Source of the DNA: Escherichia phage Turkey3
DNA length: 64,000 bases
Strand: one strand, 5' to 3'
Sequence record: PQ471515.1
A model generated the notes under the pieces. The model ran no database searches, was not told where the DNA came from, and was given only the letters and a program-made list of their open reading frames with translations. The position numbers were made by a program, and so were the translations under genes. Numbering within the stretch: position 1 is the first letter of the stretch; the number at the start of each line of letters is the position of its first letter. Positions 38,066 to 41,223 of the stretch are shown here, piece by piece.

Positions 38066-38329
38066 ATGAATATCCAAGATAGATTGCAATTGTTGCACAC
38101 ACTTGAAGAAGCTGCTTTTGAACTTGTTAATAAAATTGCACAAGAACTCCCAAAAGGAACCAAAGTTCGTGTTCGTGAAATGGATTATTTAACGGGAAAA
38201 ATTGATGAAAAAGTTCTAACAGTGATCAAAGTAACATACTATGAATCAGAGTTATCAATTCAATGTAATTCAGATAATGGTTACGTTTCCTACTATGGCA
38301 CAGATGTAGATATAGAGGTAATAAAATGA
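38066..38329 (+). CDS. hypothetical small protein
   Basis: ATG 38066 (MNIQDRLQLL); track start 38021. Confidence 0.45.
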   Translation: MNIQDRLQLLHTLEEAAFELVNKIAQELPKGTKVRVREMDYLTGKIDEKVLTVIKVTYYESELSIQCNSDNGYVSYYGTDVDIEVIK

Positions 38330-39468
38330 CCCTTTTACAAATATATGAAGATTTAATGCACTTATGTAATACTCGTGAGGCTTTCTTTTATGTGGATCAT
38401 AAAAGTCCTGCTGGTGGAACATATCGTGTATTCAGTTATCGTCTAGCATCATATACCGATTTCATGCAACCCAATGCATTAGAAACCCGTGGTTCTATGT
38501 GGGAAATTGATGAAGACGGTGATATGATTCGTTGTGCTGCTCGTACTATGAAAAAGTTCTTCAATGCTTACGAAAATCCTGCTACAATGTTCCCTGCTGA
38601 TACCACATTCGATGACATTGCAGTAGTGATGCCTAAGTTGGATGGTTCAGTAATCAGTACTTACCGTGATAATGATGGTGTAATTCGTTGTAAATCACAT
38701 ACTGCATTGTATTCAGACCATGCGATTAACAGTACTCGTCTTCTCAATGAGAACCAAAATTTGTATCAATACATTGACGAAGCAGACCGTTTGGGCTATA
38801 CTGTTAATCTGGAGTATACAAGTCCAGAGTACCGTATTGTATTACCATACCAGGTTGAACAAATATTTGTACTAAACGTTCGCCATCGCAAGAGTGGTGA
38901 ACTATTATGTGGTTCTGCATTACGTAACAAGTTTCCATGCCTTGCACAGTACAGTACTAACATGACAGGTAAAGATATTCATTACACTTTCCCTGTTCGT
39001 GCTACATTCAAAGAAAGTGTTGAAGAAGTTAAGAAAATGCTTGACATTGAAGGTTTTGTGTGCATCCTAAATAATGGTACAATGTGCAAAATCAAAACCG
39101 ACTGGTATTGTTCTTTGCATTTAACGAAAGACAGTATTATAATCGATTCCCATTTATATGAAGCTGTATTAAATGGTTCGAGTGATGATTTAAAACAGTT
39201 GTTCAGTACTGACGAATATGCTACCCAAAAGATATTAAGAATGGAACAACTAGTCTTTTCGTGCTATAATGCTTTACAAGATGAAGTTGAAAGCTTCGTC
39301 AAGGAACACAAGCACTTGGAGCGAAAGGAATTCGCTAAGAAGGTTCAGGAGTGTTTAACTAATGAACTGAATCGTCAGGGCTTGGCCTTTGCAATGTACA
39401 ACAATAAGAAAGTCGATTACAAAGAGACTCTTATTAAGTACATGAAAATTGTACTAAAGGATTTTTAG
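38326..39468 (+). CDS. rnlA: RNA ligase 1 (T4 RnlA-like)
   Basis: 380 aa; KLDGS nucleotidyltransferase motif I; REAFFYVDH...TYRVFSYRLASY and CKIKTDWY...LHLTKDS...GSSDDLKQLFS match T4 Rnl1 as recalled from memory. Confidence 0.9.
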   Translation: MTLLQIYEDLMHLCNTREAFFYVDHKSPAGGTYRVFSYRLASYTDFMQPNALETRGSMWEIDEDGDMIRCAARTMKKFFNAYENPATMFPADTTFDDIAVVMPKLDGSVISTYRDNDGVIRCKSHTALYSDHAINSTRLLNENQNLYQYIDEADRLGYTVNLEYTSPEYRIVLPYQVEQIFVLNVRHRKSGELLCGSALRNKFPCLAQYSTNMTGKDIHYTFPVRATFKESVEEVKKMLDIEGFVCILNNGTMCKIKTDWYCSLHLTKDSIIIDSHLYEAVLNGSSDDLKQLFSTDEYATQKILRMEQLVFSCYNALQDEVESFVKEHKHLERKEFAKKVQECLTNELNRQGLAFAMYNNKKVDYKETLIKYMKIVLKDF

Positions 39469-39497
39469 TACTATCTAGCCTAGCACAAGGAGAAGTG

Positions 39498-39752
39498 ATG
39501 GCTAAACCTAAGTATAAAAATGACGGTTCCCTTTCTCCGACAGAATTCAGGAAAATACAAGAAGAAATCGATGAATTACAGCACAAACGCTCTAAGAAAG
39601 GTGTGAAGATTAGTAAGAAACGAATCGAGAATACTTTCGGGTGTAGTAGTACTGAATACAAGAAGAAAAGGAAACCAAAAGGTGTTAAGCCGAGAATACA
39701 TGATGTAACTCGCTATACATCGAAACGTGAAAATAAATTCGACCCACTATAA
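39498..39752 (+). CDS. small basic protein
   Basis: AAGGAG RBS then ATG; Lys/Arg-rich MAKPKYKNDGS...KKRKPKGVKPR. Confidence 0.45.
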   Translation: MAKPKYKNDGSLSPTEFRKIQEEIDELQHKRSKKGVKISKKRIENTFGCSSTEYKKKRKPKGVKPRIHDVTRYTSKRENKFDPL

Positions 39753-39761
39753 GGAGTTCAT

Positions 39762-39998
39762 ATGAAAGTTGAAGTTCAGCATAGTATTGTTCAGGATATG
39801 TCAGTAGTTAAATTTCTTTCCTTGAAAGATTATTTCAGATGTATCAAGTTCCTAGAAGAATCTCAATTACAGTGGACCCCATTAAAGTACAGTTCATCCA
39901 ATGATACTGCTAGTATTCGTTGTGATGAATCTGTACTTGTGAAAATCTCCAAGCGATTTGGGATTGGGAAATACAATGATAAACAATGCACAAAGTAA
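39762..39998 (+). CDS. hypothetical small protein
   Basis: 78-aa ORF. Confidence 0.4.
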   Translation: MKVEVQHSIVQDMSVVKFLSLKDYFRCIKFLEESQLQWTPLKYSSSNDTASIRCDESVLVKISKRFGIGKYNDKQCTK

Positions 39999-40287
39999 TT
40001 TACTATATATAAAGTCAGTAGAAGCTGAAATTAAAAATTCAGTACAAACTATCGTCGATGAAATGATTGACAAATACAAGAGCAATCTTATTGGAAAGAA
40101 AGTCAGATGTTGGGATTACACATTCAAACACTGGTACGATTCCGAGATTGTGAAAGTTGATGTGAATATTGATAGTAATGGTCTAATTAATGGTATTGCG
40201 TATATTGGTGTTTTAATACGCAAGGGAACACCACAGGAATGGCTCACCTATCATAATATAGAGCATGTTAAATTTTTAGAGGATTAA
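39976..40287 (+). CDS. hypothetical small protein
   Basis: ATG 39976 (MINNAQSNL...); track start 39958. Confidence 0.4.
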   Translation: MINNAQSNLLYIKSVEAEIKNSVQTIVDEMIDKYKSNLIGKKVRCWDYTFKHWYDSEIVKVDVNIDSNGLINGIAYIGVLIRKGTPQEWLTYHNIEHVKFLED

Positions 40288-40290
40288 AGG

Positions 40291-41223
40291 ATGCCAACTA
40301 TCACACTAACAGTTGGATTGCCTGGGTGTGGTAAAACTACATGGGCAGTGCAAGAGATTAAAAAAGCCAAATCCAAGACTATCAACATCAACCGTGATGA
40401 TATTCGTGAATCTATGGCTGGGTCACATGATGCTTACAAATTCAACGATGCTAATGAGCAGTACGTAACTAATTTACAGTTCAGTGCAGCAAATTCAGCA
40501 GCAGAGAATGGTTGGAACATCATCATATCCGATACGAACCTTAAACAACATTTCCGTAATCTATGGAAAGTATGGGCTATAGATAATGGTTATGATTACA
40601 AAGAAAAGAACTTCTATGATGATTTTGTACCTAATGAAGACCGTGGTGCAGATGTTCATGAATTCTTTAAGATTAAAGAGTTCGTAAAACTTTGTAAGAA
40701 ATATAACCTCCAGCGTGAGCGTTCAGTACAAGATAATATCATTGACACTATGGCAGATACGTACTATTATAGTAAGGCATTACACATTGGTTACTATGGT
40801 AATTCACGAGAAGCTGCTATTATCGTTGATATCGACGGTACTCTTGCTCATAAATGGGGACGTAACCCGTTCGATGAAAGTACTGTACTCCAGGATACAC
40901 CAGACGAAGAAGTTATTTTGTCTATTATCGCAGAAGCAGTTTTTCATAAACGCAAGATTATCGTCATGAGTGGGCGTACTGAAGGGTGTCGTGCTGATAC
41001 CGAACAGTGGCTTAAGAATTGGGGTATTCCTTACGATGCATTGTTTATGCGAGACATTGATGATAAACGTCCTGATGATGTTGTCAAATTCGACCTGTAC
41101 ATGAAAAATGTGGTTGATCATTACGATGTTAAAAAGGTATATGATGACCGCAATCAAGTTGTGTTCATGTGGCGTAAGCTACTTGGGTTGAAAGTTTTCC
41201 AAGTGGCTGAAGGAAATTTCTAA
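40291..41223 (+). CDS. pseT: polynucleotide 5'-kinase / 3'-phosphatase (T4 PseT-like)
   Basis: Walker A GLPGCGKTT in kinase domain; phosphatase domain DIDGTLA (DxDGT) and C-terminal WRKLLGLKVFQVAEGNF matching T4 Pnk as recalled. Confidence 0.9.
   Translation: MPTITLTVGLPGCGKTTWAVQEIKKAKSKTININRDDIRESMAGSHDAYKFNDANEQYVTNLQFSAANSAAENGWNIIISDTNLKQHFRNLWKVWAIDNGYDYKEKNFYDDFVPNEDRGADVHEFFKIKEFVKLCKKYNLQRERSVQDNIIDTMADTYYYSKALHIGYYGNSREAAIIVDIDGTLAHKWGRNPFDESTVLQDTPDEEVILSIIAEAVFHKRKIIVMSGRTEGCRADTEQWLKNWGIPYDALFMRDIDDKRPDDVVKFDLYMKNVVDHYDVKKVYDDRNQVVFMWRKLLGLKVFQVAEGNF

Follow-up and report, generated by a model that had tools for sequence, protein, structure and literature searches.

A stretch of 64,000 nucleotides from the genome of Escherichia phage Turkey3 (sequence record PQ471515.1), referred to here as the window, carries a gene for RNA ligase 1 (Rnl1) and one for a polynucleotide kinase/phosphatase (Pnkp; gene pnk, protein Pnk), which lie 822 nt apart on the same strand as a linked, co-oriented pair with three small genes, designated s1, s2 and s3, between them (Table 1). 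The initial annotation of this DNA had recognized homologues of T4 RnlA and PseT here, less than 1 kb apart, and had read them as a T4-type tRNA-repair module; the coordinates it gave for both genes proved exact. The three small open reading frames (ORFs) in between are real genes, annotated in relatives and preceded by Shine-Dalgarno sequences. The window belongs to an Asteriusvirus, a jumbo coliphage of the PBECO4/121Q type within the Rak2-like clade; its G+C content is about 33% throughout, and nearly all of its genes are on the + strand. Over the 4.2 kb that hold the module, identity amounts to 99% with Escherichia phages CMSTMSU, EC.P1, Ecwhy_1, fEgEco12 and WPEC5 and to 93% with PBECO4 and its relatives, and the phages that match at 93-99% are all Asteriusvirus jumbo phages with genomes of 350-386 kb.

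Table 1. Features of the putative RNA-repair locus in the Turkey3 window
Feature	Position	Strand	Description and basis
Terminator-like hairpin with T-run	37030-37049	+	Consensus scan; probable upstream boundary of the predicted unit
Three tightly packed upstream genes	37068-37370, 37375-38064, 38066-38329	+	ORFs; PHROGs without assigned function
Rnl1 (T4 RnlA/gp63 homologue), 380 aa	38326-39468	+	Adenylyltransferase domain and Rnl1-type C-terminal domain
s1, 84 aa	39498-39752	+	Very basic (pI 10.1, 25 K+R); phrog_15306
s2, 78 aa	39762-39998	+	ββαββα two-layer fold; best-conserved gene of the cassette
s3, 103 aa	39976-40287	+	Hypervariable slot between s2 and pnk; phrog_31355
Pnkp (T4 PseT homologue), 310 aa	40291-41223	+	N-terminal P-loop kinase, C-terminal DxDxT (HAD) phosphatase
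Terminator-like hairpin, 11-bp stem with T-run	41227-41253	+	Consensus scan; 3 nt past the Pnk stop

The first of the two enzymes is a full-length homologue of T4 RnlA. BLASTP against the T4 protein, drawn like PseT from a T4 genome record, returned 35% identity over 359 aa (E 6e-63), the T4 Rnl1 structures 2c5u, 9do4 and 5tt6 matched at E 8e-57 to 6e-56, and phrog_562 matched at E 2e-107. Two Pfam families scored above their curated cut-offs, RNA_lig_T4_1 (E 6e-14) and, over residues 268-379, T4_Rnl1_C (PF20819, E 2.6e-16). The protein was aligned with its counterparts from T4, a Jiaodavirus, Acinetobacter phage Acj61, Vibrio phage D481, Agrobacterium phage Atu_ph07, Campylobacter phage CP30A and seven Rak2-like phages. 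Ten of the 11 T4 Rnl1 residues that were checked are kept, with R55, K77, F79, K104, G107, E163, E242, G243, K255 and K257 of Turkey3 standing for R54, K75, F77, K99, G102, E159, E227, G228, K240 and K242 of T4. The KLDGS sequence already picked out by the initial annotation occupies residues 104-108 and forms ligase motif I, and this motif, motif III (E163), motif IV (E242-G243) and motif V (K255/K257) are invariant in 10-14 diverse homologues. The residues specific to the Rnl1 family, R55, K77 and F79, are present as well; the roles of R54 and K75 in the T4 enzyme have been described (PMC6379707). Membership of the C-terminal domain in its family is established by the PF20819 match, and it may keep the tRNA specificity that the all-helical C-terminal domain confers on T4 Rnl1 (PMC6379707).

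The kinase/phosphatase is equally clear. Pnk aligns with T4 PseT at 33% identity over 327 aa (BLASTP E 2e-46) and with the T4 Pnkp structure 1ltq at E 1e-38, so that for both enzymes similarity to the T4 proteins lies far beyond chance, as the initial annotation had anticipated. Further matches are to phrog_505 (E 8e-95), to the Pfam phosphatase family HAD_PNKP (E 1.7e-43) and to the P-loop kinase family AAA_33 (E 1e-12). The two motifs reported earlier, a P-loop and a DxDGT box, were both found, as GLPGCGKT at residues 9-16 and DIDGT at residues 180-184. All essential residues of T4 Pnkp, whose catalytic roles have been described (PMC3592404), are conserved in the multiple alignment, which places the protein in both the kinase and the phosphatase families: K15, T16, D36, R39 and R142 correspond to K15, S16, D35, R38 and R126 of the T4 kinase, D180, D182, T184, R191 and S227 to D165, D167, T169, R176 and S211, and R229, D262, K266, D285 and D286 to R213, D254, K258, D277 and D278 of the phosphatase. 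The set includes the general base of the kinase (Asp35) and, for the phosphatase, the Asp nucleophile, the Asp acid-base and the Mg-binding Asp278. The partner of T4 R126 is misplaced in the pairwise alignment and becomes R142 in the multiple one.

The pnk gene is not intact in every record. In that of CMSTMSU, which is flagged UNVERIFIED_ORG, it is broken into three frame-shifted pieces (L001:6054-6907), and in Klebsiella phage 15882-3 it is annotated as two coding sequences (L009:8572-9465); either sequencing errors account for this or the genes are true pseudogenes. In Escherichia virus TH47 a 246-aa ORF (L004:4989-5729), absent from the window, is inserted at the pnk terminator, at the equivalent of window positions 41204-41230. 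It looks like a free-standing homing endonuclease because it has a GIY-YIG motif ('YIIYKITN...KIYIGAH') and NUMOD-like repeats, and the end of the TH47 Pnk differs from that of Turkey3 (FQVDFGRF versus FQVAEGNF), which suggests co-conversion.

Comparison with phages G17 and A4 by the Nei-Gojobori method gave ratios of nonsynonymous to synonymous substitution rates (dN/dS) of 0.06-0.14 (Rnl1) and 0.06-0.11 (Pnk), and both enzymes are therefore under purifying selection. The same holds for all genes of the module, with values of 0.03-0.09 for s1 and 0.11-0.21 for s2.

The arrangement of the two genes is also that of T4, in which rnlA, alc, pseT.3, pseT.2, pseT.1 and pseT follow one another on one strand with a gap of 1.4 kb. 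Elsewhere no gene separates rnlA from pseT in Acj61, six do so in Vibrio phage D481, and a Jiaodavirus has a T4-like set. A scan of viral contigs yielded 74 loci with at least 4 kb of sequence downstream of an Rnl1 gene. Pnk was found downstream and on the same strand in 59 of them (80%), at distances of 0.7-4.2 kb (median 1.8 kb), and in none of the 74 was it upstream or on the opposite strand; both genes are retained in 17 of 17 Rak2-like loci. As order and strand are the same, the pair was inherited from an ancestor shared with the T4-like phages, and for the T4-like and Rak2-like lineage the proximity of Rnl1 and Pnk is ancestral and no special property of Turkey3. On the remaining 15 contigs there is no Pnk within 10 kb of Rnl1, nor is there one within 8 kb in Atu_ph07 or CP30A; such genomes may use another end-healing enzyme or have another gene arrangement. 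The 15 contigs (L038, L042-L046, L048, L062, L065, L066, L071, L073, L075, L077 and L096) carry an Rnl1 homologue at 36-42% identity, and several are longer than 270 kb.

The small genes between the enzymes divide into two kinds, and the question raised by the initial annotation, whether they are conserved with the module, has a different answer for each: s1 and s2 are, and s3 is not. The first two were found in 55 (s1) and 70 (s2) phage records, all of them Rak2-like jumbo phages, with hosts in Escherichia, Salmonella, Klebsiella, Serratia, Yersinia, Erwinia, Pectobacterium, Cronobacter and Xanthomonas, and in every genome inspected they are placed between Rnl1 and Pnk. All 17 Rak2-like loci have s2, and 16 of them have s1. 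Identity across genera is 55-61% for s1, where it is clearly detected (K64-1 gave a weak match of 31 residues only), and 63-71% for s2, roughly on a par with the enzymes at 54-64% for Rnl1 and 46-64% for Pnk. Of some 20 small flanking ORFs, none has a counterpart that could be detected in these loci, which makes Rnl1-s1-s2-Pnk an island of conservation. Neither s1 nor s2, nor s3, resembles T4 alc or pseT.1-3. An AlphaFold2 model of s1 (predicted template modelling score 0.46) consists of a long helix, residues 14-45, and a short one, and profile searches of Pfam and the PDB with s1 returned nothing. A helix-turn-helix protein had been considered for s1 on the strength of a sequence pattern and was rejected, the modelled helix 14-45 being single and continuous.

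The third gene occupies a hypervariable slot. Nucleotide similarity to G17 and A4 is lost at ~39971-40015 and regained at 40255-40291, and the s3 protein is 34-38% identical to the G17 and A4 alleles while the flanks keep 87-97% nucleotide identity. Among Asteriusvirus records, 17 have the allele of the window (at least 92% identity) and 14 have alleles at 31-38%; no s3 was found outside Asteriusvirus. The slot holds an extra 84-aa gene in 121Q, G17 and A4 (compare L003:3113-3688 and L008:6645-7210), and the window has the PBECO4-type allele without that gene. Synonymous divergence in s3 (dS 1.1-1.35) is far above that of the flanks (0.14-0.6), which points to old alleles exchanged by recombination and not to a gene that evolves fast in place. 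The s3 product may be a diversifying counter-defence or exclusion protein. The name 'transcriptional regulator', given to it in the fEgEco12 annotation, has no support in Pfam or in PMC13070987 and was set aside, as was the idea that the small ORFs next to the module form one diverged paralogue family (a helix, 'GxxV' and beta strands): for s3 and ORF 38021-38329, tenfold shuffled decoys scored equally well in iterated profile searches.

On this evidence Rnl1 and Pnk most likely make up a T4-type pathway that repairs RNA by healing and sealing. Full-length homology to both T4 enzymes, the PF20819 match, the catalytic residues apart from one in ligase motif Ia, purifying selection and the T4 order and strand all point in that direction, and the tRNA-repair module of the initial annotation holds good as a prediction from homology. 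A metal-independent anticodon nuclease would leave a 2',3'-cyclic phosphate and a 5'-OH; Pnkp would remove the former and phosphorylate the latter; and Rnl1, steered to the anticodon loop of the tRNA by its C-terminal domain, would reseal the nick, allowing translation of phage proteins to continue. Besides these two enzymes the Rak2-like cassette contains s1 and s2 and, in Asteriusvirus, the variable slot s3.

The system to which the module is to be compared is T4 RnlA/PseT, the tRNA-Lys restriction-repair pair directed against PrrC. It shares with Turkey3 the same two families over their full length, the same domains, the catalytic residues, the gene order, the strand and the presence of a few small genes between the enzymes. 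It differs in that the intervening genes are alc, pseT.3, pseT.2 and pseT.1, whereas Turkey3 has the unrelated s1, s2 and s3; in the motif Ia Lys119, which is replaced by His; in an insert of ~20 aa in the Turkey3 Pnk kinase domain, found within the alignment only in three Asteriusvirus sequences; and in an insert of ~15 aa in the Turkey3 Rnl1 adenylyltransferase domain, accompanied by a shorter C-terminus. We know of no trigger equivalent to T4 Stp for Turkey3. The Rak2-like phages PBECO4, 121Q, G17, CBB, GAP32, Serratia phage BF, K64-1 and 7t3 have orthologous rnlA and pseT genes (54-99% identity), annotated as RNA ligase and polynucleotide kinase, in a cassette of the form Rnl1-s1-(x)-s2-(x)-Pnk, and differ only in the content of the variable slots. 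More distant is the CthPnkp/Hen1 system of Clostridium thermocellum, in which kinase, phosphatase and ligase likewise heal and seal breaks that end in a 2',3'-cyclic phosphate and a 5'-OH (PMC2190708). CthPnkp is a single polypeptide with a metallophosphoesterase of the lambda-phosphatase type, an Rnl4-type ligase and a Hen1 methyltransferase partner, whereas Turkey3 has a separate HAD-type Pnkp and Rnl1-type ligase and no Hen1. The Pnkp1 protein of PDB entry 4xrp matches Turkey3 Pnk over its full length (E 6e-32).

Several points weigh against a T4-type tRNA-repair pathway. The lysine of ligase motif Ia is missing, T4 K119 being aligned with H125 of the Turkey3 protein, and K119 is reportedly essential in T4 Rnl1. 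With 112 residues the Rnl1 C-terminal domain is some 10 shorter than the 121-residue domain of T4 and resembles it only weakly, the pairwise alignment stopping near residue 340. T4 Rnl1, as gp63, is bifunctional, with a further role, not an enzymatic one, in the attachment of tail fibres. PrrC has been described as an optional locus in E. coli (PMC1950546), and heal-and-seal repair fixes single nicks in the anticodon loop but not the excision of the wobble base by RloC or the amputation of the anticodon arm by P2-OLD.

The motif Ia substitution belongs to the whole clade: the position is H, N or Q in 8 of 8 Rak2-like sequences and K in 6 of 6 other phages. Residues 121-125 of the Turkey3 protein read R-C-K-S-H, where T4-like ligases have L-F-K-S-K, and the Rak2-like enzymes have in common one inserted residue and, two positions upstream, an Arg (R-x-K-S-H versus x-x-K-S-K). 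The clade-specific R121 and the conserved K123 adjoin H125. In the homologous fungal ligase Trl1 the motif Ia lysine touches the ATP gamma-phosphate and has been proposed to bind the RNA 5'-phosphate (PMC6379707). The Rak2-like motif Ia may be a compensated remodelling, not an inactivation, in which the upstream Arg may make up for the lost lysine.

Whether the substrate is host tRNA or instead some other nucleic acid bears on the alternative that survives best, that the enzymes are active without being dedicated to host tRNA: they could mend or process other RNAs cut during infection (such as phage or host mRNA, rRNA or tRNAs encoded by the phage), or Pnkp could serve mainly in DNA-end or nucleotide metabolism. 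The C-terminal domain, to which T4 Rnl1 owes its tRNA specificity (PMC6379707), is the least conserved part of the Turkey3 protein, several RNA ligase types, for which specialised targets are assumed, occur in jumbo phages (PMC7824862), and the neighbours of the module include genes of nucleotide and DNA metabolism (DNA ligase, dCMP deaminase, phosphoesterases). PF20819 nevertheless still matches that domain with the significance given above, and the combination of Rnl1 and Pnkp is the hallmark of repair at breaks that end in a 2',3'-cyclic phosphate and a 5'-OH, for which tRNA is the sole documented physiological substrate; we consider a general, non-tRNA role unlikely.

The bifunctionality of gp63 opens a second alternative, in which Rnl1 owes its retention mainly to a gp63-like structural or chaperone function in attaching tail fibres and its link to Pnk is no more than inherited order. 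PHROG and GenBank names ('tail fiber protein attachment catalyst') perpetuate this role, the gene order is clearly ancestral, and Rnl1 occurs without Pnk within 10 kb on the 15 contigs described above. A purely structural role, however, needs none of the ligase active-site residues, which are nearly all invariant across very distant phages; nor would it account for the conservation of Rnl1-s1-s2-Pnk while ~20 neighbours turn over, or for the position of Rnl1 in a region of early or metabolic type, away from the structural genes. This makes it quite improbable. That the module is a relic which no longer has selective value for Turkey3, as its inheritance without recent acquisition and the optional nature of PrrC might suggest, is more improbable still, and the measured purifying selection already speaks against it, both genes being intact, with dN/dS of 0.06-0.14 at dS up to 0.9, and the pair being retained in all the Rak2-like loci and in most Rnl1-bearing contigs.

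A T4-type tRNA-repair role for these enzymes is not a new proposal. GenBank records of Asteriusvirus relatives name the ligase gene 'RNA ligase (and tail fiber protein attachment catalyst)' and the kinase gene 'polynucleotide kinase / 5'-kinase 3'-phosphatase', a comparison of 224 jumbo phages interpreted Rnl1-type ligases and kinase-HAD phosphatase fusions as RNA repair against host attack on tRNA (PMC7824862), and a tRNA repair role has been suggested for CBB_83 (PMC5259590). Both the genes and their interpretation are thus already known and already annotated in the genus. Both enzymes are textbook examples from T4, and RNA repair has already been reviewed for jumbo phages; the main finding accordingly adds little. 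What is added is descriptive: quantified synteny, the motif Ia substitution, the place of s1 and s2 in the cassette and the allele-swapping slot next to pnk. Only the intervening genes go beyond existing annotation. It is enticing to speculate that s1 and s2 are clade-specific accessory components of RNA repair, for instance a factor that binds tRNA or confers specificity, a link between the two enzymes or an inhibitor of a host tRNA nuclease, and that the s3 slot is a diversifying counter-defence position, a proposal that we regard as tentative and on balance doubtful. If it were true, the cassette would be a four-protein system, unlike the two-enzyme pathway of T4; in any case a search for new RNA-repair accessory factors or anti-defence genes would find cheap and well-defined candidates in s1, s2 and the neighbouring slot.

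What the module says about hosts is a separate matter. The initial annotation took it to imply that the host range includes strains with anticodon-nuclease defences, which is plausible; the many tRNA-targeting defences beyond PrrC include RloC, RemN, Cas13a, Retron-Eco7, PARIS/AriB, P2-OLD, colicin-type and VapC nucleases (PMC12409363). The presence of the module nonetheless says little about the particular hosts of Turkey3, because it has been inherited across the T4-like and Rak2-like lineage. A relative with 99% identity encodes six tRNAs, only tRNA-Ser, Met, Asn and Thr, and no tRNA-Lys (PMC13070987), and since no tRNA-Lys is encoded, repair would be its only known answer to a nuclease that attacks tRNA-Lys. 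No tRNA genes were found in the Turkey3 window, and this, together with the lack of a tRNA-Lys in the relative, fits a reliance on repair over replacement. Working tRNA repair would help jumbo coliphages of this kind, which have been proposed for therapy, on hosts equipped with anticodon-loop nickases.

The module is probably transcribed as part of a longer unit. Eight genes follow one another from 37068 to 41223 at distances of -23 to +29 nt, every one of them with a Shine-Dalgarno-like sequence in front of it, and the last upstream gene shares 4 nt (ATGA) with the start of Rnl1. The unit would end at the hairpin after pnk, which in phage G17 has an equivalent that bears a terminator annotation; the hairpin at its upstream end coincides approximately with the point at which blastn similarity to CMSTMSU and EC.P1 starts. 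A sigma-70 promoter scan performed no better than on shuffled sequence (37 found versus 33.9 expected), and no promoter was called. The three upstream genes are not conserved outside the genus, apart from weak matches to the middle one, and are therefore probably co-transcribed passengers and not parts of the module. In EC.P1, TH47, vB_Ec-M-J and A4 an extra gene of 579 bp (192 aa) is found at the position between the first two of them (compare L002:579-1157 and L008:3466-4044); in the window these genes are 4 nt apart, at 37370-37375, with no trace of it.

Further genes of the neighbourhood are conserved in the clade. The most conserved gene near the module encodes a 232-aa protein (36031-36729, phrog_16105) without Pfam or PDB match; 14 of 16 Rak2-like loci have it, at a mean identity of 68% and always 0.7-1.6 kb upstream of Rnl1. 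At 44604-45362, 3.4 kb downstream of pnk, lies a calcineurin-like metallophosphoesterase of the lambda-phosphatase/NinI type, present in 15 of 16 Rak2-like loci and weakly matched by a PHROG named 'RNA ligase'. Enzymes of the lambda-phosphatase-type class can show 2',3'-cyclic phosphodiesterase activity (PMC2190708), and for this reason the product could be a further RNA end-healing enzyme; a search of the annotation across the window gave no further RNA-repair genes. An ATP-dependent DNA ligase (gp30-like, 47495-48913), a second metallophosphoesterase after it (~48933-49724) and a dCMP deaminase (~53181-53654) also lie downstream of pnk, and the position of the DNA ligase and the deaminase near pnk, like that of gene 30 and cd in T4-type genomes, suggests extended ancestral synteny between Rak2-like jumbo phages and Straboviridae.

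Elsewhere in the window there are three tandem families of small paralogues, with eight (6702-8672 and 13916-14603), seven (8856-10675 and 14593-17399) and six members (33359-35498); the family at 33.4-35.5 kb, the one compared, has no homologues at the corresponding loci of other Rak2-like genera. Finally, a Sir2-like NAD-dependent deacylase gene followed by a Nudix hydrolase gene at 55984-57284 and a cytidylyltransferase-like gene at 31611-32144 are in keeping with the NAD-centred counter-defence genes reported from jumbo phages.

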